DNA of 64,000 nt, taken from assembly GCA_902486425.1 (NCBI GenBank), contig CABTOK010000009.1, positions 42,194 to 106,193 of the forward strand, given 5' to 3'. A model generated the notes under the pieces. That model saw only the letters and a program-made list of their open reading frames with translations, made no database searches and had not been told where the DNA came from. Numbering within the stretch: position 1 is the stretch's first letter; the number at the start of each line of letters is the position of its first letter. Both the position numbers and the translations under genes were made by a program. Below, in pieces: positions 1,208 to 62,315 of the stretch. Source of the stretch: an uncultured Eubacteriales bacterium. GTDB taxonomy: Bacteria; Bacillota; Clostridia; Christensenellales; Borkfalkiaceae.

Positions 1208-1912
1208 TCAGATAATTGTCCCGAATGTTTCGGGAGAGATGACCGTTTTTAATTTTTCAAGCGCACGCTTTTCTATTCTCGAAACGTACGAGCGTGAAAT
1301 TTTGAGTATCTTCGCGACTTCTCTCTGTACAAAACACCTGCCGTTATACAGTCCGTATCTTAAACAGATTACGGTGAATTCCCGCTTGTTAAGGACTTTC
1401 CGCATTTTTCCCAAGATGGACGTTCTGAGCATCATATTGTCGGCGTTTTTGAATACCGAGTCTTCGTCTTCGGTCAAAACGTCGATGATTTTCAGCGTGT
1501 TCCCGTCCTTATCGGTACCGACTTCGGAATCTAACGAGATTGTTCCGCGGTGCTTTTTATCGGAACGTATCAGCATCAGAATTTCGTTCTCGATACAGCG
1601 ACCGGCGAAAGTCGCGAGTCGCACGTTTTTATCGAGGGAATAGGTGTTTATCGCCTTCGCAAGACCGAGACTGCCTACGGATAAAAGATCGTCCGTTTCC
1701 GCCGCACCCTTATACTTTTTTACGACGTGGGCGACAAGGCGCATGTTGTGTTCGAGAAGCTTTTCCTTGGCGGCTTTGTCGCCTGCTTTCGCTTTCAGTA
1801 TAAGTTCTTTTTCTTCTTTTTCCGAGAGAGGCTTTTTAAAAGAACTGCCGGTCAGTACCGATCCGGTAAAAAATATTATCTTGCTTAAAAAGTATAAAAG
1901 TTTTTCTAACAT
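1208..1912 (-). CDS. sigK: Sporulation RNA polymerase sigma factor with N-terminal pro-sequence (pro-sigma-K-like)
   Basis: 234 aa. Hydrophobic pro-sequence FFTGSVLTGSSFKKPLSEKEE followed by LEHNMRLVAHVVKKY, ATFAGRCIENEILM and a region 4 ending ISRSYVSRIEKRALEKL; this matches sigK/sigE-family sporulation sigmas. Strong RBS TAAGGAGCAAAAATG. Confidence 0.6.
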   Translation of the reverse strand: MLEKLLYFLSKIIFFTGSVLTGSSFKKPLSEKEEKELILKAKAGDKAAKEKLLEHNMRLVAHVVKKYKGAAETDDLLSVGSLGLAKAINTYSLDKNVRLATFAGRCIENEILMLIRSDKKHRGTISLDSEVGTDKDGNTLKIIDVLTEDEDSVFKNADNMMLRTSILGKMRKVLNKREFTVICLRYGLYNGRCFVQREVAKILKISRSYVSRIEKRALEKLKTVISPETFGTII

Positions 1913-7063: not shown

Positions 7064-7174
7064 AAATTCAATGAAGCGGATAAAAACCGCGAGACGCTTA
7101 AAAAATATCCGATACGCATCAAAAAAATTTTGACCACTATATCTTGGGTAGAGGTAAAATAAAAAAAATTTCTC

Positions 7175-7203
7175 TTGACTTTTTTCTTATAAATAAGTAG
7201 TAT
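7175..7203 (+). promoter_or_regulatory. Sigma-A type promoter for thrS (TTGACT-17-TAGTAT)
   Basis: Hexamers at 7175-7180 and 7198-7203, 37 bp upstream of the thrS ATG. The leader is only about 30 nt, so no T-box fits. Confidence 0.4.
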
Positions 7204-7239
7204 TTATAAGCCGCTTAAACGCGGAAAGGAAAAAGTTAA

Positions 7240-9171
7240 ATGATCGTAACGCTTGAAAGAGGGGTAAAAAAAGAATTGACGAGCGGTCTTACCGCAGCCG
7301 AAGTTCTTCATAAAGCGTACCTGTATCCGGACGGAACCGAAGGCAGATACGATAAAACCGCCGTCGCCGTAAACATCGGCGGCGATATTTTACCGCTTTC
7401 ATTTAAAATAGACGATGATTGCGAACTTTTGCCCGTAACGTTAAAAGACGAAGCAGGCATGAAGGTTTACCGCCATACGCTTTCGCATATTTTAGCGCAC
7501 GCGGTGAAAACCATTTTCCCGACGAGTAAGTGCGCCGGCGGCGACGATACCGAAAACGGGTTTTATTACGATTTCGATTTCAACACGCCGATAAACGAAG
7601 ACGATCTTGTAAAAATAGAAAACGAAATGCTTGCGGTTATACGAGCGGATCTTCCTATCGAGAGATTTATGCTTTCTGAGGAAGAAGCAGTTACCCTGAT
7701 GCGTAACTTTTCGGAACCGTACGTTACGCAGAAAATAGAAGAGTGCGGAAAAGAATACGTTTCGTTTTACAAGCAGGGCGATTTTATAGACGCATGCCTT
7801 AACGTTCATCTTCCGTCCACGGGCAGAATAAAAGCCTTTAAGCTGACGGGAATATCGGGCGCGTACTGGAACGGAAAAGCGACGAACAAAATGCTTACGA
7901 GAATTTCGGGCGTGGCGTTCGAAAAAAGGTCCGAACTTGAAAGCTTTTTGAAAAGTCTCGAAACGGCTAAAACGATTCAGCATAACGTTTCGGGAAGACG
8001 TCTCGGCTATTTTACAGACATTCCGGGAGCGGGAAGAGGACTCCCCGTGATACTCCCGAAGGGCGCGATGGCGATAAGAGAGATGAAACGCTTTGTCGAA
8101 GACGAAGAATTCAAACGCGGATTCGTTCCCGTTCTTACCCCCGTCATGGCAAAGGCGGAATATCTTAAATCGAGCGGAAAAATAAGCGACCGCTTTACCG
8201 TCGGCGACGACAGAAAGGCTAAAGATGCTTACGCGCTTAAAAGCAACGCTTCGCCGTTTGTTTTTTCGGCTTTTACCGAAAGACAGAGAAGCTATCGCGA
8301 ACTCCCGTTCAGGATTTCCGAAACGGCGACGGTATTCAAAAACGTTCCGTGCGGAAAGGCTCACGGGCTTACCGTTTTAAGACAGCTTACCGCGAGCGAA
8401 GAATATATAATATTTAAAAATTCCGATGCCGAAAGGGTAGTGGGCGAGTCGCTGGACTTTATAAGAACGGTTTTAAGAGAGCTGCGTTTAGACGACGCAT
8501 GCGTTACCGTCTCCAGTCTCGGCGAAGGCAGACGGCAGAGATATTACGGAACTTCGAAGGACTGGAACGCGGCTACCGCTTTATATAAAAAAGTTCTGAC
8601 AGAGAGGGGAATAAACTTTACGGACGATATCGAATCGACTTCGCCTTTCGGACCGGGAATAGACTTTTTCGTAAAAGACGTTTTCGGCAAAAAGGTGTTC
8701 CTGTCGTTTTTGAGATACGATTTCGGCTCGGCTAAAAAGTTGAAGCTCGGCTTTGTTGATTCGGACGGCGAAAAAAAGACTCCGTCTGTTATATATATGA
8801 GCGCAGCGGGTTGTTACGAAAGGGTTCTCGCGATGCTTATCGAAAAAAACGAAGGCGTTCTGCCCGTAAGATTCGCGCCCGTTCAGGTTAAAGTTTTAAG
8901 CGTTTCGGACAAGGTTTCGGACTATGCGGAAACGGTGAAGAATAAGTTTTTAAGTCTCGGCGTCAGGGCTGCGATCGACAATTCTTCGTCAAAGCTCTCG
9001 AAAAAGCTAAAAAACGCTTACGGCGACCCCGTTCCTTTTATTGCAGTAGTAGGCGAAACGGAAGAAAAATCCAGAATCGTTTCGCTTAAAAAACTCTGTT
9101 TTAAGGGAGAAGAAGAAATAACCGAAGAATTACCCGTCGAAAGTGCGGCGGAGCTTATACTGCGTTCCTAA
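7240..9171 (+). CDS. thrS: Threonine--tRNA ligase
   Basis: 643 aa with N-terminal TGS domain, HxxxH editing-domain motif (HTLSHILAHAV), class II aaRS core and C-terminal anticodon-binding domain. RBS GGAAAGGAAAAAG. Confidence 0.9.
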   Translation: MIVTLERGVKKELTSGLTAAEVLHKAYLYPDGTEGRYDKTAVAVNIGGDILPLSFKIDDDCELLPVTLKDEAGMKVYRHTLSHILAHAVKTIFPTSKCAGGDDTENGFYYDFDFNTPINEDDLVKIENEMLAVIRADLPIERFMLSEEEAVTLMRNFSEPYVTQKIEECGKEYVSFYKQGDFIDACLNVHLPSTGRIKAFKLTGISGAYWNGKATNKMLTRISGVAFEKRSELESFLKSLETAKTIQHNVSGRRLGYFTDIPGAGRGLPVILPKGAMAIREMKRFVEDEEFKRGFVPVLTPVMAKAEYLKSSGKISDRFTVGDDRKAKDAYALKSNASPFVFSAFTERQRSYRELPFRISETATVFKNVPCGKAHGLTVLRQLTASEEYIIFKNSDAERVVGESLDFIRTVLRELRLDDACVTVSSLGEGRRQRYYGTSKDWNAATALYKKVLTERGINFTDDIESTSPFGPGIDFFVKDVFGKKVFLSFLRYDFGSAKKLKLGFVDSDGEKKTPSVIYMSAAGCYERVLAMLIEKNEGVLPVRFAPVQVKVLSVSDKVSDYAETVKNKFLSLGVRAAIDNSSSKLSKKLKNAYGDPVPFIAVVGETEEKSRIVSLKKLCFKGEEEITEELPVESAAELILRS

Positions 9172-15758: not shown

Positions 15759-15985
15759 CTTAAGAATATAAAAAATCGTTGTATTTTTAAAGTTTTTTTG
15801 CTAAAATATACGTAAAAGAGCCGTATAAAAGATTTGAGTTTTTATAAAGAACGGTTATTTTTAAAAGTTATTACGGTTTTTGCGGCAATTCTGCAATAAA
15901 CCGATTCATAAAATCATTTAAGATTCGGACGGCGGATAAAATCCCGCTTCCTAAAAAATCGGGTACTTTCAAGGAGGTATCTAGC

Positions 15986-18714: not shown

Positions 18715-19230
18715 ATGGAAAAGAAAAATTTTAACCGTGGAACTATGGGCGGCGGCATTGCCAGAATAATTATTGCGTTGGTTGCGGCGATAATTGCCGT
18801 TACGGTTATCTGTTCCGGTATAAAGTCGTACGATCCTGAAGATAAGTTCGGAACGGTGTTCATGTGTCTGATCGGGGGAATAATGATTGTCGCGTCGATC
18901 GGCTTTATTTGTAACGGCGTAAAAATGATTCTTGACGGCAAAAAGTCGTTTGAAGTTTCTCGTAAAGGTCACTCAGAGAACGGAAGAATAACAGACTTAT
19001 CCGAAACCGAAGTAACCGAAAATAACAACGGATGCATATCTAATTACACGATATATAACCTGAAGTTTGAATATACGGACGATTCCGGCAACTTGTGCGA
19101 AAGTCAGGAACAGATCAGTCAGAATGTTTACGAAAAGTTACGGCAAATGGCTCTCGTTCCGATTCTTGTATACGGTGAGCGCGCTATATTCGATAAAAAA
19201 AGATTCGATAACGAAAACAATATAGGCTAA
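18715..19230 (+). CDS. Hypothetical small membrane protein (2 TM helices plus soluble C-terminal domain)
   Basis: 171-aa ORF with RBS TAGGAGGTTAATCTGATG and two hydrophobic helices near the N-terminus. A terminator hairpin lies at 19279-19312. Confidence 0.5.
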   Translation: MEKKNFNRGTMGGGIARIIIALVAAIIAVTVICSGIKSYDPEDKFGTVFMCLIGGIMIVASIGFICNGVKMILDGKKSFEVSRKGHSENGRITDLSETEVTENNNGCISNYTIYNLKFEYTDDSGNLCESQEQISQNVYEKLRQMALVPILVYGERAIFDKKRFDNENNIG

Positions 19231-20271
19231 ACCTGTATTTATTACGAATTTATTTATGATCTTATATTAACAAAATCAACTCGTCTGAAACTAAGAACTT
19301 CGGACGAGTTTTTTATTATTTGTCCGCTTATCGGAAATATGTCGTGGAACTAAAAATAAAAAACGGGAAAAGAACGGGGGAGAAGATTTGTTCTTAAAAA
19401 AAGACCGTTCTGCGAAAATTTAAAAGTAAAAAACCGACGATTTTATCCGCCGGCTGTATAGTTCGAAAGTATTCAGTTGTGCCTGCCGTTTTTGCGTAGC
19501 CGACTTTTACCGCTGTAAGCGAATGAATATCGTTTGTTCCTTTTAAGTAAGTCTTTTACGTTTGAGAGCAGGAGTTAATAGAGTAGATCGGACCATACCT
19601 CCTTTATAAAATGCGTCCTTGTATCCTTATCATAAATAATTCTCCCTATTAAGGATTGTATATAGGCTTGGTTCGTGTGAGCCTGTTTGAAATTAAACCG
19701 CTTGATGTCTCCTTTTGTATTGTATTTTGGTTTAATTATCGGGTTATAACTGCATCGGTCTGTACCTCCTTTTGATATTAAGTAGTTGTGATGTGCATCG
19801 GACCATACCTCCTTGTGTAAATTTTGGCTGAATTGCGATCTTTGTATCAAAAACCGACTTTGTAATTATTTCATCGGACCGTACCTCCTTGTGTGGCTTA
19901 TCTATATCTGCTTGCCTTTACGGGGCAAGGTATCATATCATAATTCCGTTTAATATCTTCGGTGGTCTGTACCTCCTTTATTTTCAGTCTGATTTATGTT
20001 TCACTTCTGCATCGGTCTGCACCTCCTTTATTATTTAAGAATCTGTTTTAAGGTTAAATTTTATTTTAATAGATTATTTGAATTTTCGGGGTATACCTCC
20101 TTTTTGTTATTATGTTGCCGTTATAAGATCAGTTATATTTCGGACCGTACCTCCTTGGTATTATTTTATAGAATGTTTGAAGTTTACGTTTCGGGTGGTC
20201 TGTACCTCCTTGTTTATTTTGGGTGGAAACTCTGAATTTTTTGTTTAAGTTCTTGCCGTTCCCTTATTTCT
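19231..20271 (-). ncRNA. Candidate long noncoding transcript carrying the nine SD-like repeats
   Basis: Transcription is inferred from the consensus promoter at 20278-20306 (minus strand) firing into the array. The 3-prime end is unknown; a possible stop is the bidirectional hairpin at 19279-19312. There is no coding potential. Confidence 0.3.
19587..20211. repeat. Array of 9 direct repeats of a 17-21 nt motif with core TACCTCCTT; on the minus strand each reads AAGGAGGTA(C/T)(A/G)G(A/T)CCGA, a perfect Shine-Dalgarno
   Basis: Copies at 19587-19604, 19754-19771, 19797-19814, 19873-19890, 19958-19978, 20011-20028, 20085-20102, 20139-20156 and 20191-20211. Spacers are non-homologous and range from 25 to 149 nt. 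No ORF of 60 aa or more lies in the region apart from a read-through artefact. Confidence 0.85.
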
Positions 20272-20277
20272 GCCTTT

Positions 20278-20306
20278 ATTATAGCAGACGGAAAAGCGTT
20301 TGTCAA
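20278..20306 (-). promoter_or_regulatory. Perfect consensus extended-minus-10 sigma-70 promoter (TTGACA-17-TGcTATAAT) on the minus strand, reading into the repeat array
   Basis: Minus-strand TTGACA equals plus 20301-20306. The 17-nt spacer is plus 20284-20300. TATAAT equals plus 20278-20283, preceded by TG. Confidence 0.7.
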
Positions 20307-20350
20307 TAGGTAAATGAAAATTTTCTTAAATTTTTATTTACAAAAACCGC

Positions 20351-20379
20351 TTGACAAAGGAGCCGTGTTCTGATATAAT
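20351..20379 (+). promoter_or_regulatory. Perfect consensus extended-minus-10 sigma-70 promoter (TTGACA-17-TGaTATAAT) on the plus strand, divergent from the previous one
   Basis: TTGACA at 20351-20356, 17-nt spacer, TGATATAAT at 20371-20379. Confidence 0.7.
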
Positions 20380-20384
20380 AGAAA

Positions 20385-20481
20385 ATGGCGGGAAAAATCT
20401 AAAAATTACCGTAAAATCTTATAAAAAACGGCAAAAATGCACAAAAAACAGGCTCAAAAGGATATTTTTAGCCTGTTTTTT
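20385..20481 (+). ncRNA. Candidate small RNA of about 95 nt: consensus promoter followed by an intrinsic terminator
   Basis: Predicted TSS about 7 nt after the minus-10. Terminator hairpin AACAGGCT(15-nt loop)AGCCTGTT at 20447-20477 followed by TTTTTT. No ORF. Confidence 0.4.
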
Positions 20482-21242
20482 ATATTTTTTTACAAAATCG
20501 CAATTTATTAAATATTAAGTAATTGTTTAATAAAATTAAATTTACAGGGCAATTTTAAGCCGGAAAACATAAAAAATATTAAAAAAAGCAAAAAAATTAA
20601 AAAATATTTTTTTAAAAAAAATTTTAAATAAAAAATAAATTTTTCGAAATTTTTAAGTAAAATTAAGTTTCGGGTGTTAAAACAAATCTGAAAATAAAAA
20701 TCCGGTTTTATAAAGAACGAACTTATATCTTACCGATATATAACACCTGAATTTAATGATAATGATAGAACTATGAAAATAGATAATCAGGATTTTACTA
20801 TTTACTATAGTAAGGAGTGTCCTTATGCAGAATACGAAGTAAAAGAACTAAATGAATATTCCAAAAATAATAATGTTAAAATTAACTTTATAAAAATAGA
20901 TTCACCTGAAAAAGTAAAAATGCTTCCTGTGTATAAAAGCAAAATAAAACAACGCAGCTTCCATAGAGGAGCCGCGTTGTTTTTATCTTTTATATGAAGG
21001 GTTTGCTTTTATGTATTTGGCAATTATTTGGCGATATAGGTATAGGCGATATAGGTATATAAATATAATACCGTAATCTTTGCCGAAAAGTTGCCGGTTG
21101 TATAATTGTTTGCTTTAATGTATCGCCGGAACGGTGCCGTAACCGTTAAACAGATAAAAATATGTTTATAAGTTGCGGTTTCACTACCGACGGCATGACC
21201 GCAGTGAACCGCGATACCGTGTTTTTTGTTTAAATAGCAGTA

Positions 21243-23692: not shown

Positions 23693-23723
23693 TTGACAAT
23701 TTTTGCGGGGGGGGGGGTATGAT
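23693..23723 (+). promoter_or_regulatory. Proximal promoter of the giant lipoprotein gene, with an 11-G homopolymer (23707-23717) inside a 19-nt minus-35/minus-10 spacer; candidate phase-variable switch
   Basis: TTGACA at 23693-23698, spacer ATTTTTGC plus G11, then TATGAT at 23718-23723. The ATG follows at 23808, preceded by GGAGGAAATAAAATG. Confidence 0.55.
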
Positions 23724-23807
23724 TTAAATGAGAGGTTAAAAAAAGGCAATATCTTCGGTATCGGCGGAGATATTACCTTAAAATTTATTTTTTATGGAGG
23801 AAATAAA

Positions 23808-26800
23808 ATGAAAAGAAAAGCGCGTTTGATTCTCTGCGTCCTTTTCGCCGTACTCGCGTCGGCTTCGATGCTTTTTGCCGCGTGCAACTTCGGCGACGGC
23901 GCGGCGGAATGCGAGCATCTCTACGGCGAATGGGAAATAACCGTTCCCGCAACCTGTTCGAAGGAAGGCGAACAAAAGAGAGTTTGCTCGAGATGCAACA
24001 ACGAAGAAACTATGCCGATCGCAAAAATCGCGCATACGATCGTTCACGTCGAAGGAAAGGCGGCGACATGCGACGAAGCCGGTTACAAAGCTTACGACAA
24101 ATGTTCCGTATGCGATTATACCGAGTGTTATGAAAAGATTCCCGCTCTCGGTCATAATTACGGCGAAGCGACTTACGCCTGGAGTAAATATTATTCGACG
24201 TGCGTCGCGACGAGAGTCTGCGTCAGAGATAATTTTCACGTCGATACCGAAAGAGTAACTGTTACCGCGACCGTCGTGCAGCAAAAAACCTGCACACAGG
24301 ACGAACTTACAAAGTATACGGCAACCTTTACGGGCGAACTCGGCTCGGACGAAAAGACGGTAGTTACCAAAAAAGCGGGACACGAACTTATAAACGTACC
24401 CGCAAAAGCCGCTACTTGCGAAAAGCCCGGTTACAAAGCTTACGTAAAGTGCGCAAACTGCGATTATACCGAAGACTATGAAGAATTGCCCGCTCTCGGT
24501 CATAACTACGGCGAAGTAGCCTACGTCTGGAACGCCGATTACACCGTATGTAAGGCGGAAAAGGTTTGTTCGAGAGACGCAAAGCACGTTCTCACCGCAA
24601 ACGGAACAATAACCGAAACCGTTGTACAGGAAAAAAATTGTACGCAGGACGAACTCACAAAGTATACAGCTACGTTCGAAAGCGGCTTCGCCCCGACCGA
24701 AAAGACGGTAACGACAAAGAAAGCGGGACACGATCTTACAGACGTTTCCGGCAAAGCCGCAACTTGTACCGAAACCGGTTACAAGGCGTATAAAAAATGT
24801 AAAAATTGCGACTATACCGAAGGTTATGAAGAGATACCCGTTCTCGGACACGATTATGATTACAGCGACGTGGTCTGGAACGACGATTACACAGCTTGTT
24901 CGGTAAACGTGGTCTGCAAAAACGACGGTGCGCATAACTTTACCGTAAACGGAACGGTTACTAAAAAGGTAACAAAAGAAGCGACGTGTACCGAAGACGG
25001 TGAAATAAAAATCACCGTAACGTTCGAAAAAGGCGTTCCCGCGGTTGAAAAGACGGTTGCTGTTCCCAAAAAAGGTCATAAGCTTACCCATTACGAAGCT
25101 ACTCCCGCAACTTGCGAAAAGGAAGGCAAAGAAGCTTACGATAAGTGCGCGAGCTGCGACTACACCGTCGGCGGAAACGCTATCCCGGCTCTCGGTCATA
25201 ACTACGGCGAAGTAACTTACGTCTGGAGTACGGACTACGCCGCATGCACGGCTACGAGAGTTTGTTCGAACGACGAAAGCCACGTTCTTACCGTAAACGG
25301 CACCGTAACGAAAACGGTTGTACAGGAAAAGACCTGTACTAAGGACGAAATTACTAAATACACCGCTGTATTCACGGGAGACATCGCTTCGGCAGAAAAG
25401 ACGGCAGTTACCGAAAACGCCGGACACGAACTCACCGTTATAGAAGGAAAAGCGGCGACCTGTGAAGAAGACGGTTACAAATCCTACAAAAAGTGCGGAA
25501 AATGCGATTATGCGGAAGAAAAAGAAGTTATTCCCGCGCTCGGACACAATTTCGGCAAGTATGAAAAATCTTCCGAAGTCGCTACCGGAAATGCTTGCGA
25601 ATACACCGTAACTCTCACCGCAAAATGCTCGCGCTGCGACAAGGCCGACAGCAAGACTTCGACCATATATAAGCACGAATACCGCGAAGAAATCGTAAAA
25701 GCGGCCACCTGTGCGGAAGAAGGCTTAAAACATAAAATCTGTAAAAACTGCGACGTAGTTTACGGCGAAAATTATTCTTACTCCGATCCCGAAGCCCACA
25801 GCTGGGACGAAGGAACGGTTAACGAAAAGGGATACGTCGTATACTCCTGCACGACTTGCGGCGCAACGAAAACGCAGACTTCGGTAACGACGAAGGACGA
25901 AGACGGAGCATATACCGCTACCGTAAAAGCGGAGTCCAAAAACGAAGTAAGCGAAATCAGAATTATAGAAACCGAGAACGAAAAGTCGACCACTACCGTA
26001 ATTTCGCTCGATCAGAATACGAGAAACGGCTTGAACGGAGACATCACGCTTTCCGCAAAGAGCTATAATAAAGAAGAACTCCCGAAACTCACGGAAGAAC
26101 TTAAAGAAAAGATCGGCGAATCCAGGATTTATAACTTCACCATGACTGCGGGCGGCGAAAGCGTTACCAATTTCAAAGGAAACGTTACTATAACCATCGA
26201 TCACACGCTCGCTCCCGGCGAAGATTCCGATAATATAGTCGTATGGTGGATAGCCGACGACGGAACCGTCGAATCTATAAAAGTTACTTATTCGGACGGA
26301 AAGGTTACGTTTACGACGACTCACTTTTCCTATTACGTTGTAGCTAAGACTACGGCGGCAGAAAAGTGTAAAGCCTTCGGACACGATTATCTTGTAACCG
26401 AATCCGAATCCGCAACTTGCGAAACCGCGGGTTATATTGTAAAGGTATGCTCGGTATGCGGCGATTCTACTGTAGAAACCATTCCCGCAAAGGGACATAA
26501 GGTCGGCGGCGACGGAAACTGCAAATTATGCGGCAAGCATATCACAGACAAAGTTCAGACCGGATTTACCGAAACGTTAAAGAGTCTTTTAGGCGGCGAA
26601 CTCACCGTAAAATTCAATAACGTCGAAATGGAAATGTGGGATTTTGCAGACCTTTCGCTTGACAGCAAATTCTTCATGAGCTTTGCGGAACTTTACATAG
26701 GAGTAACTGCGGACGGCGAAGTCAGCGTATACGGCTACGGCGTAGGTTACTATACCACGAAGGATTTACCCAAAGATACGTTCAGGTTTGAAGCGACTCT

Positions 26801-29800
26801 CGCTATCGACAGCGAAAACTTCTATCTTAAAGCCGATATCCCGATGATATCGTCGTCTTCGACGAGCGATTATCTCGGCAAGACCGAATGGTTCAAAGTA
26901 AACGGCATGAATCAGGTAATTCCGCTCTCTTCGATGGTGGGATCGGGCGTTTATCAGATGATGAACGGCGTTCTCCCGGAAACCGTAAAGTGGATGAAGA
27001 CGGAACTTATCCCCGCGATAGAAAACGTTATAGACCTTAACTATTCTGTGATAAATTCCGTTATAGAAACGTTTGTAGATAGCTTATTTACTTCGTCGGA
27101 AGCCGAAGGCAACACCGTTTACGCTCTCGACGCGGATAAACTTAAAGCGGTTGCCGAAGTATTGATAAACGGTTCCGTAAAAGACGTATTCGAATATTTT
27201 GCCGGCGAAGGTTCGTTTGAGGCCTTTACCGCAGAACTCAAAAAACTCCTTGATATGCCTTTCGGCAAAATGCTTGAAAATGCGAAAGAAAAAGGCATTA
27301 ACATAAAAGCGGCTCTTGCAAGCGTAAACGGATTGCTTGCAAAATTCGTACCCGAAGGACAGGAAGCGCAGGCGGATATAGTAGCTATTATTTCCAATAT
27401 GTCTACCAAAGGGCAGATGACGATGACTACCGCAGAGCTTCTGGATCAGCTCGAATCGGAAGACTTCAAGTCGATGACTCTCGTAGACGTTATCAATATG
27501 ATGTCGAATAGCGGAAACGGCGGCTCCGGCGGCTCGGATAGCGAAGGAAACGTAACGGGCGGAAACGAAGGCAAAGGTAATGAAGAAAAGACGGAAAAAT
27601 ATGCTGCGGACGAATGCGTAAACGAAACTACCGAACAGCCGGCCGAGACGAAAATGACTTCGGACGATATAATAAACGGCTTGAAAGGCACCGCGGAAAT
27701 GGGTATTGTCGAAATAATACTCAACTTTAAAGGACAGCGCCCCGAAGCGGATCAGCTCGCCGAAATGAAGAAAAATTATCTTTCTACGGCGAATCAGATG
27801 ATCGACGTTATTACTTCTATAGCAAACGTTTCGTTTACTCTTAACGGGACGGGCGAATTTGTAAAAGCGGACGTAGACACTTCGATAAATCTTGCGAACT
27901 TCATTCCCGAACAGTCTTTAAGAAGCGTCGGCATCACGAGCATAACGGGCAAAATAAGCGTTGTAAAAGGTAAAGAACTTACTCAGGATTACGCTTCGTT
28001 CCTTAAAGAAGTTGTAGCCGAATCCGAAAAGGTAAGCTCGCTTATAACGGACGTCATAAAAGATTATTTTAAGGGCAGCGAATACGAAATCGTTTATAAT
28101 CAGCAAGGCTACGTCGATTATGTCGAAAAAACGTATTATAAAGAAGAAAATTTAGACGCAGGTTGCTTCAAGGAAGAAACGAGCCTTATGGTTCTTCTCG
28201 CAGCGATGAATCGTTGCGGCGCGGAATACGGAGCGGAAAGATACGTCGAACTTTACAAACAGTACGGCGAAAAGCTCAATATTTCGTTCAGAAAGGTTTC
28301 CGAAAACGAACTTACCGAAAGACTTTATTTCGGCAGCGGCGTCGGCGGATATATGTATTCGTTCAAAAAGACCTGCGGCAACAAATATTCGGTATCGCTC
28401 AATACTTCGACTCGCGGACCGATATCTGCTTTCGGCAGCAGCTCGGAAAACAACAATAATAATGAATATTATTACAATCTTACAGTAACTTTGAGCGTGG
28501 ACGATACAGCCAATAACAGACCTTCGGATATTGTTTATACCGCTTCGATGAGAGAGATTAACAGCATTCTCGGATATGAAGATACCGCGGATAACATAAT
28601 TCAGAGTATCATCGCCATGATGACTTCGGAAAGCGGCACCCAGATAACCGACGAAAACAGAAACGAGATCGAATCCGCAATCCGCATGAGAATAAACGAA
28701 GTATCGGATGTCGTAAGAAGAAACGCTACGTTCTATAATTACAATAACTTCTATTATAACGGCTATAGTTACTTCCCTTCGTTTACGGTAAATGCGGATA
28801 ACGGTTCTTACGTAGTTGAAGAAAGCGGTAACGATTACAGAATCTGCCACAACGACGTACTTGTAAAAGAAGATTCGCACACTCCCGAAAATTGTACCGA
28901 CTGGGGCTGGAAGTCCTATAAATGCGTCGCCTGCGGAGAAGTGTTCGTTAAGTATTACAGAACGGGACACAAGCACGTAACGAGCGAAGTAGTGTTCGAC
29001 GATCCCGAAAACCCGAACTGTACGACGGGCGTAACGGTAACTTATACATGTACGGACTGCAATCAGGTAATCTATATCGACAGATCGCAAGGCGGCGGAC
29101 ACGTATATCTTTATCAGAACGACGCGTTTGAAGATATGGGCCTTCCGGAAGCCGGACATAGGCACGTAACGGGAACTCTTACCTGCGTATGCGGCAAAAT
29201 GAACGGCGGATACAACAGTTCGTTTGAAAACATCTACGGATATTATGAAAAGAGCGAAGACGGAACAAAGACTTTTGTCTCCGGAGACGTATACCTTTGC
29301 CGCGAGTGCGATTTAGGCTTTGTTCTTACTGCGGACGTAAAACCGGGTACCGAAAAATGTACTTATATCATAACTCCGACTTATAAGCTCATGCAGCTCG
29401 TTTACGAAACCGAAATCGGAAAGGAAGATTATAAAGAAGTTTATGAAGCTTATATAAGCTTGCTCGAAGCTAAGGTCAGCGAAATCAATAAGGAAATCGA
29501 AAACGGCACATACGACGGTATTGACGATTTCTCGGGACGTCTTGAAGAAGCGAGAGCTCGCTACGCAGAAGCGCAGAATAGAGTAAACAGCTCTTCCGAC
29601 GCGCGTAACGTATACAGAGAAGCTTTGCGTATGTGGGCAGAAGTTAAAGATACTCTCGGAACCGGGCAGTACGAAAAGTTTGCCGAAAAGGCTTATCCCG
29701 TTCTTAAAGCTAATTACGGCGTAAAGGTCGGCGAACCTTATACTTATGAAAGACACGGTTCTGTCAGCGAAAGATACGAGCTCATCGGCAAGACCTGCGA

Positions 29801-31190
29801 AGAAGGCTATTACGTTATAGAAACATGCAGCGATTGCGGCAAAGTTATAGACAAGAGCGAAAGACGTGGTCACAGATATGACAAAGAAAAAAGAGAAATC
29901 GTCGGATCGAACGACGTTTGTTACAGAATCGTAACAAAATGCGAAATATGCGGCGAAATTATCGACAGCTATGAAAGAAGACATGAAAAGTATGTCGAAG
30001 TCGGTAAAGCTCTTAACGACGGATCTGTGTCCTGCGAAGACGGCTGGCATTATATTTATCGTTGCGACGAATGCGGCGCTACCTTTAACGGCGAAACGAG
30101 ATGCGATCATTATACAGAAAGAACTTTGATTGATCTTACGTCGATCGGCGGACCGAAAACGGAACACGAACATTATTGCTACGGTTGCTTATGCGGCAAT
30201 AGGATCGATAGTATAGAGGGCTTCGATAATTACTGCTACGAATATACTCTTAACGGAGAACTCGTAAACGGTGAATTGAATTACTGCTCCGAATGTAAAA
30301 TCGGTTACATACTTACTTACGAATCTTCAAACGAAAATTGCTTGCACACCGAAAGAAGAACTTATACTTTTGTACAAATAAGCATCGACGACGAAACGAA
30401 AGCCGTTACGGTATTAAAAACTTACGGCGAAAAATCAAGCGTCTATAGTTACGAGTCTCATAACGAAGAAGTTATAAATCAAGAAACGTTTACCGATATT
30501 GACGGCAAAGGCGAGGGCTTCAGGTTAACATTCAGATGCGGTAATTGCGGTAAAGAAAGAACCGAAACTCATTACGGACATTACTACGGAGATTCCGCTC
30601 CCGAATATAAACTTCTCGGCAAGACTTGCGAAGACGGAGTAGAAGTAACGAGAAGGTGCCTGATTTGCGGCGAAACCGATACCCATACGGAACACAAGCA
30701 TTTCGGCGAAGTCAAAGAAGTAACGACTCTTCAAGGCAAATACTGCACCGACGGCGTAAAGGTTTCTCGCGTTTGCACGATATGCGAGGGCGAGTTAAGT
30801 TCCGAAATTTATGACTATCACTTACATTATAATAACGGGGTAGAGCTTACAACGGGCGAAGATACCGATTGTAAACATATTCTTTTAGGTAACTATTGTC
30901 CGGATTGCGGTTATATCGAAATCATAAACTTTGAAAACGAAGTAGAGTACGGCGGGTTTGAAGTTTATAACTCGGACGGCGAATCGGTCGGAAATGCGTT
31001 GGGTTACTGCAAAAATTGCGCGTATGTTCTGTACAGATCCGTTAATCCGGACGGTAAGGAAGGCGATTTAAAGTTAGCCGTATGTTTATTCACTCTCGAC
31101 GAAAATAACGAAGGAATAGTAAAAGCGGTTATTTTAAGAGAACTCGAAGTTAAAGTCGTAAACAGAAATTACGAGTACGAAGGAAAATAA
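23808..31190 (+). CDS. Giant (2460 aa) cysteine-rich surface lipoprotein with five tandem ~115-aa Cys modules and a CxxC-dense C-terminal region
   Basis: MKRKARLILCVLFAVLASASMLFAAC is a signal peptide with a lipobox Cys. The module signature C-x3-GYKAY-x-KC-x2-CDYTE-x-YEE-IPALGHNYGE recurs every 340-350 bp at 24151, 24491, 24841, 25187 and 25532. A Gly/Ser/Asn/Glu linker (GSGGSDSEGNVTGGNEGKGNEEK) follows. Twenty or more CxxC(x)nH/C pairs lie between aa 1720 and 2440. No sortase or SLH signals were seen. Confidence 0.8.
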   Translation: MKRKARLILCVLFAVLASASMLFAACNFGDGAAECEHLYGEWEITVPATCSKEGEQKRVCSRCNNEETMPIAKIAHTIVHVEGKAATCDEAGYKAYDKCSVCDYTECYEKIPALGHNYGEATYAWSKYYSTCVATRVCVRDNFHVDTERVTVTATVVQQKTCTQDELTKYTATFTGELGSDEKTVVTKKAGHELINVPAKAATCEKPGYKAYVKCANCDYTEDYEELPALGHNYGEVAYVWNADYTVCKAEKVCSRDAKHVLTANGTITETVVQEKNCTQDELTKYTATFESGFAPTEKTVTTKKAGHDLTDVSGKAATCTETGYKAYKKCKNCDYTEGYEEIPVLGHDYDYSDVVWNDDYTACSVNVVCKNDGAHNFTVNGTVTKKVTKEATCTEDGEIKITVTFEKGVPAVEKTVAVPKKGHKLTHYEATPATCEKEGKEAYDKCASCDYTVGGNAIPALGHNYGEVTYVWSTDYAACTATRVCSNDESHVLTVNGTVTKTVVQEKTCTKDEITKYTAVFTGDIASAEKTAVTENAGHELTVIEGKAATCEEDGYKSYKKCGKCDYAEEKEVIPALGHNFGKYEKSSEVATGNACEYTVTLTAKCSRCDKADSKTSTIYKHEYREEIVKAATCAEEGLKHKICKNCDVVYGENYSYSDPEAHSWDEGTVNEKGYVVYSCTTCGATKTQTSVTTKDEDGAYTATVKAESKNEVSEIRIIETENEKSTTTVISLDQNTRNGLNGDITLSAKSYNKEELPKLTEELKEKIGESRIYNFTMTAGGESVTNFKGNVTITIDHTLAPGEDSDNIVVWWIADDGTVESIKVTYSDGKVTFTTTHFSYYVVAKTTAAEKCKAFGHDYLVTESESATCETAGYIVKVCSVCGDSTVETIPAKGHKVGGDGNCKLCGKHITDKVQTGFTETLKSLLGGELTVKFNNVEMEMWDFADLSLDSKFFMSFAELYIGVTADGEVSVYGYGVGYYTTKDLPKDTFRFEATLAIDSENFYLKADIPMISSSSTSDYLGKTEWFKVNGMNQVIPLSSMVGSGVYQMMNGVLPETVKWMKTELIPAIENVIDLNYSVINSVIETFVDSLFTSSEAEGNTVYALDADKLKAVAEVLINGSVKDVFEYFAGEGSFEAFTAELKKLLDMPFGKMLENAKEKGINIKAALASVNGLLAKFVPEGQEAQADIVAIISNMSTKGQMTMTTAELLDQLESEDFKSMTLVDVINMMSNSGNGGSGGSDSEGNVTGGNEGKGNEEKTEKYAADECVNETTEQPAETKMTSDDIINGLKGTAEMGIVEIILNFKGQRPEADQLAEMKKNYLSTANQMIDVITSIANVSFTLNGTGEFVKADVDTSINLANFIPEQSLRSVGITSITGKISVVKGKELTQDYASFLKEVVAESEKVSSLITDVIKDYFKGSEYEIVYNQQGYVDYVEKTYYKEENLDAGCFKEETSLMVLLAAMNRCGAEYGAERYVELYKQYGEKLNISFRKVSENELTERLYFGSGVGGYMYSFKKTCGNKYSVSLNTSTRGPISAFGSSSENNNNNEYYYNLTVTLSVDDTANNRPSDIVYTASMREINSILGYEDTADNIIQSIIAMMTSESGTQITDENRNEIESAIRMRINEVSDVVRRNATFYNYNNFYYNGYSYFPSFTVNADNGSYVVEESGNDYRICHNDVLVKEDSHTPENCTDWGWKSYKCVACGEVFVKYYRTGHKHVTSEVVFDDPENPNCTTGVTVTYTCTDCNQVIYIDRSQGGGHVYLYQNDAFEDMGLPEAGHRHVTGTLTCVCGKMNGGYNSSFENIYGYYEKSEDGTKTFVSGDVYLCRECDLGFVLTADVKPGTEKCTYIITPTYKLMQLVYETEIGKEDYKEVYEAYISLLEAKVSEINKEIENGTYDGIDDFSGRLEEARARYAEAQNRVNSSSDARNVYREALRMWAEVKDTLGTGQYEKFAEKAYPVLKANYGVKVGEPYTYERHGSVSERYELIGKTCEEGYYVIETCSDCGKVIDKSERRGHRYDKEKREIVGSNDVCYRIVTKCEICGEIIDSYERRHEKYVEVGKALNDGSVSCEDGWHYIYRCDECGATFNGETRCDHYTERTLIDLTSIGGPKTEHEHYCYGCLCGNRIDSIEGFDNYCYEYTLNGELVNGELNYCSECKIGYILTYESSNENCLHTERRTYTFVQISIDDETKAVTVLKTYGEKSSVYSYESHNEEVINQETFTDIDGKGEGFRLTFRCGNCGKERTETHYGHYYGDSAPEYKLLGKTCEDGVEVTRRCLICGETDTHTEHKHFGEVKEVTTLQGKYCTDGVKVSRVCTICEGELSSEIYDYHLHYNNGVELTTGEDTDCKHILLGNYCPDCGYIEIINFENEVEYGGFEVYNSDGESVGNALGYCKNCAYVLYRSVNPDGKEGDLKLAVCLFTLDENNEGIVKAVILRELEVKVVNRNYEYEGK

Positions 31191-61787: not shown

Positions 61788-62315
61788 ATGAATAAAAGGG
61801 AAATCGACGCCGCGCTTTACAGGGTATCTTTAGGCGATAACGAAGCGTTCGGCAGACTTTACGAGGAAACTCGTCGCGGCGTATACGCGTTTTTGTTTTC
61901 GTATTTCAACAATTCGTGCGATTGCGAAGACGCCGTTCAGACGACATATCTCAAAATAAAAACGAATATTTCTCACTACCAAAAGGGGACCAACGGGCTT
62001 GCCTGGATTTTACAGATAGCGAAGAACGTTGCTCTTTCGGAACTGAGAAAGAAAAAGTCGGACGAAAAGCGGCTCGATAATTACATAGACAGCGAAGAGA
62101 CTGTTTCGGAACCGCAATACAAAGGCGAGATAATCGACCTTATGAAGCGTACTCTGGACGAAGATGAACAAAGAATAGTAATTCTGCATGCGGTGTGGGA
62201 TTATAAACATAAAGAAATCGCAGAGATGTTGAACTGTCCCACCGGAACCGTAACTTCAAAATACAAACGGGCGGTGGACAAAATGAAAAAAGCATGGAAG
62301 GAGGGAAACAGGTAA
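61788..62315 (+). CDS. ECF-type sigma-70 family RNA polymerase sigma factor
   Basis: 175 aa with region 2 (AFGRLYEETRRGVYAFLFSYF...DAVQTTYLKI) and region 4 (HKEIAEMLNCPTGTVTSKYKRAV). Confidence 0.75.
   Translation: MNKREIDAALYRVSLGDNEAFGRLYEETRRGVYAFLFSYFNNSCDCEDAVQTTYLKIKTNISHYQKGTNGLAWILQIAKNVALSELRKKKSDEKRLDNYIDSEETVSEPQYKGEIIDLMKRTLDEDEQRIVILHAVWDYKHKEIAEMLNCPTGTVTSKYKRAVDKMKKAWKEGNR

Follow-up and report, generated by a model that had tools for sequence, protein, structure and literature searches.

The stretch of DNA analyzed here (64,000 nt of contig CABTOK010000009.1 from an uncultured Eubacteriales bacterium, hereafter the window) carries on its minus strand an array of nine direct repeats resembling the Shine-Dalgarno (SD) sequence. 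The array is flanked on one side by dnaE, two phosphofructokinase genes and a gene for a 171-aa hypothetical protein, and on the other side by a 74-aa open reading frame (ORF), htpG and a giant ORF. It is bracketed by a consensus promoter and an intrinsic terminator and apparently represents a non-coding RNA gene, the components of which are listed below in the direction of the predicted transcription.

20278..20306, minus strand: promoter, TTGACA, 17-nt spacer and TG-extended TATAAT, sigma-70 score 12/12
20212..20271, minus strand: A-rich leader of ~60 nt between the inferred start site and block 1, similar by eye to the leader of the related locus L154 (see below)
20195..20211, minus strand: block 1 core AAGGAGGTACAGACCAC, matched by pattern and profile, no start codon after the core (CCC GAA ACG TAA)
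20140..20156, minus strand: block 2 core AAGGAGGTACGGTCCGA, matched by pattern and profile, no start codon after the core
20086..20102, minus strand: block 3 core AAGGAGGTATACCCCGA, the most divergent copy, with the lowest nhmmer score (9 bits)
20001..20028, minus strand: block 4 core AAGGAGGTGCAGACCGA with mini-ORF ATG CAG AAG TGA (MQK*), matched by pattern
19962..19978, minus strand: block 5 core AAGGAGGTACAGACCAC, matched by pattern, no start codon after the core
19866..19890, minus strand: block 6 core AAGGAGGTACGGTCCGA with mini-ORF ATG AAA TAA (MK*), matched by pattern
19778..19814, minus strand: block 7 core AAGGAGGTATGGTCCGA with mini-ORF MHITTT*, matched by pattern
19744..19771, minus strand: block 8 core AAGGAGGTACAGACCGA with mini-ORF MQL*, matched by pattern
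19588..19604, minus strand: block 9 core AAGGAGGTATGGTCCGA, matched by pattern, canonical spacing without a start codon
19456..19587, minus strand: 3' domain, strongly conserved within the species, the conservation reaching upstream into the long spacer to about 19680
19425..19455, minus strand: intrinsic terminator (9-bp stem, 6-nt loop, U-run), invariant among strains and absent from the initial annotation of this DNA
19425..20271, minus strand: predicted whole transcript of ~850 nt, 43% A, as bracketed by promoter and terminator

The array was delimited by searching both strands of the whole window with the pattern AAGGAGGTRYRGWCCGA, at most two mismatches being allowed. Exactly nine matches were obtained, all on the minus strand within 19588-20211, the rest of the 64 kb having none; dinucleotide shuffles gave an expectation of 0.07 matches, and nine were reached in 0 of 100 shuffles. 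The octamer AAGGAGGT is found ten times in the window, nine times inside the array and once, at 15971, as the SD sequence of pfkA. Successive cores start 55, 54, 74, 50, 88, 76, 43 and 167 nt apart, leaving gaps of 26-150 nt between the 17-nt cores. The initial annotation, which had been made from the letters alone, described nine minus-strand copies of the perfect SD used by pfkA, separated by spacers of 25-149 nt and read from a perfect extended -10 promoter at 20278-20306, and it agrees with the search on all these points, the promoter scoring 12/12 with TG ahead of the -10 box. Its 17-mer, taken there as the whole repeat unit, turned out to be only a part of a conserved block of ~30 nt.

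These signals support the view of the minus-strand unit as a putative promoter-driven, terminator-ended transcription unit which encodes no protein; the ends and the abundance of the transcript are deduced from consensus signals. As the array and the 171-aa gene are transcribed towards each other, nothing is co-transcribed downstream of the array. In folding predictions the whole transcript was no more structured than shuffled sequence (z = +0.46), and the 3' domain was weakly structured (z = -1.5). No Rfam family was matched in the whole window at the gathering threshold or in the region 19200-20800 at E<=10, and the scan of the window for tRNA and tmRNA genes found none. The longest ORF of the region (91 aa, 19575-19850) is, as had been noticed initially, the repeat read in frame, KEVWSD being read twice. 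It has no Pfam match, and its sole homologue among 5.8 billion proteins is the copy from its own species, which bears out the earlier statement that the element encodes no protein and speaks against decayed coding sequence. Gene callers mislabel RNAs of this kind as small hypothetical ORFs, as exemplified by a 77-aa call in the contig L003.

The locus recurs, at 90-97% identity, in over a dozen metagenomic contigs from this species, and seven contigs spanning it were aligned to the window. Among these strains, identity is 97.4-100% in the 17-nt cores, 97-100% in the promoter and 97.4-100% in the 3' domain with the terminator (19432-19587), as compared with 88-95% for the spacers, 87-97% for the leader and 91-97% for the neighbouring protein gene (100% in L002). 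Since the cores, the promoter and the 3' domain are more identical than the spacers, they are under purifying selection, which does not extend to most of the spacer sequence. The spacers are common to all strains rather than variable, and the rare core polymorphisms coincide with positions that vary between the copies. The contig L004 lacks exactly one unit, block 6, which is consistent with a repeat-mediated deletion. The long spacer between blocks 8 and 9 additionally holds, at 19642-19671 and 19701-19715 on the minus strand, a degenerate block AAAGGAGACAUCAAG and a 9-codon ORF, MIRIQGRIL*, which is strain-invariant and has GGGAG 9 nt ahead of it; both fall in the highly conserved 3' portion of the RNA.

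Related arrays were sought by a metagenome scan for two adjacent copies of AAGGAGGTNNNGNCC and by one genome scan. As both can reach only members in which two exact cores are separated by 25-55 nt, the prevalence of the family is underestimated. Several unrelated contigs with a window-like architecture were recovered in the metagenome scan; most of the 99 metagenome matches to the two-copy pattern, and nearly all of those on viral contigs, proved to be GC-rich coding tandem repeats (collagen-like or LRR-like) and were discarded. The groups of loci, designated by their L-numbers, are the following.

L168/L150/L103/L083 and L214: 3-4 blocks; promoter, blocks and terminator seen
L159/L121/L097/L091: 4 blocks; promoter, blocks and terminator seen, the -10 box of L159 being TACAAT
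L155: 3 blocks; promoter and blocks seen, the contig ending ahead of any terminator
L154 and L131: 7-8 blocks as tandem units of ~52 nt; promoter, blocks and terminator seen
L177: 3 blocks; blocks only, on a chimeric 'viral' contig

The promoter TTGACA-17-TATAAT (with the above variant in L159) was present in all eight loci examined, with AT-rich DNA ahead of it and an A-rich leader behind, and all complete loci end in an intrinsic terminator in the same orientation as in the window. The architecture of the family is therefore that of a promoter, an A-rich leader, 3-9 copies of a ~30-nt block and a terminator, the defining block being (A)AGGAGGUAC-RGN-CC-R...U-N-A in at least three copies at least 43 nt apart, all of which is present in the window. 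Judging by neighbouring proteins, the carriers are metagenome-assembled genomes (MAGs) of Lachnospiraceae (L103 and L131 groups), a Eubacterium sp. MAG (L159 group) and the window species, while two further carrier contigs were left unplaced; array-carrying genomes include UBA11475/DPQQ01 and GCA_024693545.1. The copy number varies, being 8 or 9 in the window species and 3 or 4 in Lachnospiraceae. A block profile built from 41 units had nhmmer matches only in these arrays across the 1.64 Mb searched, and no real gene in this 1.64 Mb of locus sequence opens with the extended motif. Rfam searches of seven family loci at the gathering threshold yielded nothing relevant, and no description of such an RNA was retrieved from the open literature, whether by concept or by sequence string. 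By these sequence criteria, the window locus, initially thought to be possibly unique, is a member of a previously unannotated family of predicted RNAs of gut Clostridia.

On the contig L177 (1-1318), ~1080 nt look tobamovirus-like by eye (RdRp GDD motif, movement-protein-like ORF) and are joined mid-unit to three blocks of the array; were its data set RNA-derived, this chimera would hint at transcription of the array. Another observation concerns L159, the Eubacterium sp. contig of which carries at 1-94 of the plus strand, ~7.4 kb from the array, a TwoAYGGAY RNA (RF01731, 52.6 bits, the 5' end being cut by the locus edge).

Gene neighbourhoods differ between the groups of the family, and no neighbouring gene is conserved, which makes a trans-acting role more likely than a cis-regulatory one. 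In one clade, a gene for a GGDEF/EAL response regulator is followed by the array RNA and then by a YjfB_motility gene. Of five further yjfB loci tested, four lack the array, and the association, confined to the EAL-array-yjfB clade, was rejected as a family feature. The 171-aa neighbour of the window array has homologues in 62 species loci, among which the array is present only at the same-species representative L013 (UBA11475); as this gene stands in different contexts elsewhere, comparison of orthologous sites is impossible.

The question of whether the motif is a single locus or a dispersed repeat, raised initially, is answered in favour of a single locus for the 64 kb, the flanks on the strain contigs and the 61 related-species loci, and a dispersed REP-like element found no support there. 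This bears on the wider possibility that no RNA element is present at all, and that the repeats are iterons or another protein-binding DNA array, a CRISPR-like or type III antitoxin array, a REP-like element or a decayed gene. Direct repeats with unrelated spacers between them and the variable copy number could be expected of several such elements. However, the promoter and the terminator keep their orientation across lineages, the spacers are irregular (26-150 nt) and common to strains, no cas, toxin or recombinase family was detected in the Pfam and NCBIfam scans of the larger window ORFs, there are no copies elsewhere in the 64 kb or in the 61 related-species loci, and the 91-aa ORF has no homologue beyond its own species. 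Unlike CRISPR arrays, with their repeats of 23-55 nt and uniform spacers that differ between strains, the array has a 17-nt core within a ~30-nt block and 26-150-nt spacers shared by strains, and no cas family is found among the window ORFs scanned. Antitoxin RNAs of type III (ToxI, CptI, TenpI) share with the array the order of promoter, direct repeats and terminator, and type III toxin-antitoxin systems are common in Clostridia (PMC3401426); their repeats, however, are head-to-tail, equal in length (~34-45 nt) and followed by the toxin gene, whereas the array is irregular (43-167 nt) and the next gene is convergent. Blastn searches against plasmid and phage collections gave chance AT-rich matches only. 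The DNA-level and decayed-gene readings are thus largely refuted, and we consider it extremely unlikely that the locus is no RNA element.

Alignment of 39 units, the counts of which are not independent because units of one locus are paralogues, gave the block consensus A-rich / AAGGAGGUAC / RGN / CC / R / NNN / AAR / ACN / UNA over ~30 nt, or in full (A)nAAGGAGGUAC-RGN-CC-R-NNN-AAR-ACN-UNA, ATG or GTG filling the NNN where a start codon is present. Conservation spans positions from about -6 to +25. Invariant or nearly so are G0, A2, G3, G4, U5, A6, C7, G9, C11 and C12; U23 and A25 are conserved in 33 of 39 units each, an A-rich run precedes the block, and positions +13, +14, +18 and +20 are A-rich. 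In 11 loci the blocks are spaced 43-167 nt apart (median 57) and never closer than 43 nt. Pairing with the 3' tail of 16S rRNA was computed for an assumed Firmicute tail, from which that of the host may differ; with this reservation, the nine blocks of the window pair at -12.6 to -15.9 kcal/mol, whereas the median for the SD sequences of 37 window genes is -7.4, and the range of the blocks is reached only by pfkA (-14.5) and one other gene (-13.1). A bulged extension, GGUC:GAUC, is available to the GGUCC variants only, again on the assumed tail. These values support the interpretation of the repeated element as a mimic of an SD sequence of maximal predicted strength.

The RNAs of the family contain 36-43% A, and the predicted probability of the SD bases being unpaired, P(unpaired), is about the transcript mean. 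The comparative folding proposed in the initial annotation gave, for four Lachnospiraceae RNAs, only the terminator and minor hairpins in the spacers, none with informative covariation, and the lineages have no stem in common. Two candidate structures were rejected as family features. One, a local mini-hairpin GG-A-GGU[ACAG]ACC-A-CC, is restricted to the AGACC(A)CC variants and lacks covariation; the other, an upstream 'GGAAC' element of some lineages which could pair with GGUCC, shows no covariation with the variable triplet.

Start codons, where present, stand exactly 9 nt after GGAGG. The initial annotation correctly noted four copies of the window followed by ATG, which open, at this spacing, mini-ORFs of 2-6 codons (MQK*, MK*, MHITTT* and MQL*), but these are not conserved in the family: ATG or GTG at the 9-nt spacing is found in 4/9 units of the window, 7/8 units of L131 and 5/7 units of L154, in only one of the four units of L159, and in none of those of L168/L103/L150, L155 and L177. 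The array could accordingly be imagined as a polycistronic minigene RNA, in which translation of 2-6-codon ORFs would produce formyl-tripeptides or peptidyl-tRNA drop-off in the manner of the lambda bar minigenes, in which a strong SD is followed at ideal spacing by an ORF of 2-6 codons with an immediate stop, as in 4/9 units of the window and most units of L131 and L154. Units of the latter two loci encode (M/V)KT* despite AAA/AAG, ACA/ACT/ACC and TAA/TGA variation, and by our own count, in which the numbers are small, four of five strain differences inside the four window mini-ORFs are synonymous: block 4 of L002 has the codons AAA TAA, which keep both the MQK peptide and the stop, block 7 differs by ATC/ATT, and block 8 by TTA/CTA, with CCA in L004 giving MQP*. 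A stop triplet stands in the fourth codon in 25/39 units. This last feature had to be rejected as evidence of translation, since its middle base (A19, G8, U10, C2) follows the background composition and 10 units read UUA, so that U-N-A, and not a stop, is what is conserved. Nor does the conservation profile of the block show clean 3-nt periodicity, and no peptide is common to the lineages. Most units of the other lineages, unlike the bar minigenes, have no start codon, and the array is on a dedicated RNA and not on a phage transcript. As several lineages have no start codons at the blocks, neither mini-ORF translation nor micro-peptides are the conserved function, and we regard the minigene explanation as very unlikely, while in units with a start codon such translation may still adjust how long the ribosome resides.

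Considering this anatomy, we tentatively favour, with somewhat less than even confidence, a reading in which the locus specifies an abundant, unstructured, A-rich RNA, the blocks of which would mimic translation-initiation regions and dock 30S subunits or 70S ribosomes, the RNA being either a decoy or itself ribosome-protected. A consensus sigma-70 promoter would give rise to an essentially unstructured A-rich transcript ended by the intrinsic terminator. Each block would imitate an ideal initiation region (an A-rich approach and AAGGAGGU, followed after a 9-nt spacer by A-rich 'early coding' sequence) and would dock a 30S subunit or a 70S ribosome via SD:anti-SD pairing; several ribosomes on one RNA molecule would then form a polysome without a message. 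The outcome would be that free ribosomes are sequestered or buffered, that 5'-exonuclease is kept off the RNA with its conserved 3' domain, or both. Consensus promoters in every lineage suggest high and probably constitutive expression, and the unstructured, A-rich character of the RNA favours access of the 30S subunit. Blocks of ~30 nt lying at least 43 nt apart, with the full GGAGGU kept and GGA not consistently in a hairpin loop, favour a ribosome-sized ligand over CsrA. Both the block length and the minimum spacing are close to one ribosome footprint. The ribosome as the ligand and the physiological role of the RNA are inferred. The broader idea put forward initially, an RNA which displays many SD or GGA motifs and titrates something, is still the best class of explanation for a single non-coding unit of SD mimics. 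In its boldest form, which we regard as doubtful, the docking reading would make the array the first natural 'ribosome sponge', a messageless RNA, constitutively and heavily transcribed, holding up to nine 30S subunits or 70S ribosomes per molecule, with the invariant UAC and CC serving to lock the ribosome in a non-productive state.

Several facts weigh against ribosome docking. UAC (+5 to +7) and CC (+11/+12) are as invariant as the SD itself and are not needed for SD:anti-SD pairing, which points to an additional or a different ligand. Eight units of L131 and L154 read AGGAAGGUAC, a weaker SD, and still keep GGUAC, and in the folding predictions the SD sequences of the L131 RNA come out partly paired (P(unpaired) of 0.24-0.41). 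The pairing energies depend on the assumed 16S 3' tail, the transcript itself is deduced from consensus signals only, and the docking is a prediction. Additionally, for a host with a genome of about 1.5 Mb, a size guessed from the longest contig, a constitutive sink for ribosomes would seem expensive.

The invariant UAC and CC are more easily explained by a sequence-specific protein than by the anti-SD, and they lead to the alternative that the blocks titrate an RNA-binding protein reading GGA or SD motifs, either CsrA or another protein recognizing GGAGGUAC...CC, in the manner of CsrB and RsmZ. The A(N)GGA(N) core is matched in every block by AAGGAG or AAGGAA, and in the one Lachnospiraceae clade the RNA lies between the genes of the GGDEF/EAL response regulator and of the YjfB_motility protein. 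In B. subtilis, CsrA is antagonized by a protein, FliW, unlike its Gram-negative counterparts (PMC13443453). As our literature search found no sponge RNA for CsrA in Firmicutes, this leaves a niche for one open. The sites of CsrB and RsmZ are packed every ~16-17 nt, however, and those of the family lie at least 43 nt apart (median 57), with GGA not consistently in a hairpin loop and no covarying stem; neither the window nor the other family loci match the CsrB/Rsm families of Rfam, and the adjacency to yjfB is limited to one clade, being absent at four other yjfB loci. With regard to CsrA in particular, the promoters are of the sigma-A and not the flagellar type, and the full GGAGGU is retained. 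A tblastn search with CsrA and FliW detected nothing in 1.6 Mb of loci, an absence that carries no weight either way. A protein as the titrated ligand is judged unlikely, although a sequence-specific one is a serious rival to ribosome docking.

The strong conservation of the 3' domain (19432-19587), which exceeds that of the adjacent protein gene in six of seven strain comparisons, suggests a further possibility, namely that the blocks act as serial 5' stabilizers, similar to the STAB-SD elements of Bacillus, and that the effector is the 3' domain, working as a base-pairing small RNA. SD-like stabilizers without a start codon are established in Bacillus (cryIIIA STAB-SD and hbs; PMC5737220, PMC4113751), and these provide the precedent. 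Normally one stabilizer is enough, however, and nine selected copies would be left without an explanation; moreover, no 3' domain common to the window and the other lineages was recognized by eye, and that of the window is weakly structured and has no identified target complementarity. We consider this explanation quite unlikely.

Since the blocks are perfect complements of CCUCCUU, they might alternatively soak up small RNAs of the anti-SD type, C-rich or CCUCC-bearing, similar to RoxS/RsaE or to csRNAs. Sponge RNAs for such small RNAs exist in Bacillus (RosA). Against this, the complements GTACCTCC and GGNNNGTACCTCC were not found outside the arrays in the window or the other loci searched, a single fixed partner is hard to reconcile with the three variable bases at the centre of the block, and nine sites are far above the number in known sponges of small RNAs, which together render this possibility highly unlikely.

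Among the known systems, the array would by analogy work most like the CsrB/RsmZ type of sponge or decoy and like STAB-SD, yet it lacks defining features of both. With CsrB, CsrC, RsmY and RsmZ of Gammaproteobacteria it shares the organization of a stand-alone non-coding RNA, strongly expressed (in the case of the array, by prediction), with many short GGA- or SD-like copies, the number of which differs between relatives; nine AAGGAG motifs, which correspond to A(N)GGA(N), lie between its promoter and terminator. Unlike these RNAs, it belongs to another phylum, matches no Rfam family and is unstructured, its motif comprises the whole AAGGAGGUAC..CC block (~30 nt) and not ANGGAN in hairpin loops, and its sites are 43-167 nt apart, as opposed to about 16 nt, with no conserved hairpins. 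STAB-SD elements (cryIIIA, hbs and the ermC leader of Bacillus) are likewise SD-like sites of Firmicutes with no productive start codon, and the ribosome bound to them blocks RNase J1. Five of the nine blocks have no start codon and are predicted to pair at -12.6 to -15.9 kcal/mol on the assumed 16S tail, as would befit a non-initiating SD. STAB-SD, however, is a single element in the 5' untranslated region of a protein-coding mRNA, whereas the array has 3-9 selected copies and no cistron before the terminator.

In kind, the array would be a repeat-motif decoy RNA, and should its ligand turn out to be the ribosome, it would have to be regarded as categorically new. Translation initiation in Firmicutes relies heavily on strong SD pairing. 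An RNA dedicated to offering super-strong docking sites and expressed at a high level would represent a new layer of global translational control, and with a ribosome sponge, gut Clostridia would have an RNA that buffers or stores idle ribosomes, for instance under slow growth or sporulation. If the ligand is CsrA or another protein, this would be the first such RNA antagonist reported in Gram-positive bacteria. Whichever ligand holds, the family is a recognizable RNA gene family absent from Rfam and present in abundant human and animal gut Clostridia, and its block consensus and architecture suffice for model building and a genome survey. The Lachnospiraceae members may allow experiments, if cultured strains carry the array.

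The rest of the window is ordinary and includes the genes of ThrRS, MurB and WhiA, a V-type ATPase operon and others. A sporulation sigma factor of the SigK type is encoded at 1208-1912 (minus strand) and a sigma factor of the ECF type at 61788-62315 (plus strand). As SigK exceeds its NCBIfam subfamily cutoff (260.7 vs 252 bits), the host is a spore-former of the Clostridia type despite its small genome, in accordance with the Firmicutes affiliation implied by the initial annotation. Upstream of the threonyl-tRNA synthetase gene (7240-9171), at 7064-7239, no T-box or other Rfam family was detected.

On the plus strand at 20351-20485, divergent from the array promoter and 44 bp apart from it, there is a second TG-extended promoter, TTGACA-17-TATAAT, also scoring 12/12, which is followed by an A-rich transcript of ~100 nt with a strong terminator hairpin (z = -3.4). 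This region is nearly invariant between strains, L013 differing at two stem positions, one of which still allows G-U pairing. It matches no Rfam family and has the appearance of an independent small RNA gene. The adjoining intergenic stretch of ~300 nt (20486-20770, 18-27% GC) is almost identical in the window and the most divergent strain, L013, unlike the array spacers, which differ by ~10% between the two. From this AT-rich region to htpG, the species representative has an insertion of ~1.8 kb (8000-10100 of L013 vs 20770-21240 of the window) carrying two ORFs, one of 229 aa which by its sequence resembles a fusion of a response regulator with part of a histidine kinase, and a Gly-rich one of 223 aa. 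The 74-aa ORF of the window (20773-20997) matches this insertion over its last 22 residues only and is therefore probably a gene remnant. Between it and the 3' end of htpG, at 21030-21059, a perfect 15-nt tandem duplication, GGCGATATAGGTATA twice, was noticed. Partial gene calls in L003 and L005 that correspond to the giant ORF (23703-31190, plus strand, ~2460-2495 aa) have no Pfam family on record. In the window this ORF contains an exact 10-mer every 348 nt (24351, 24699, 25047 and 25395), and this recurrence indicates tandem domains of 116 aa.

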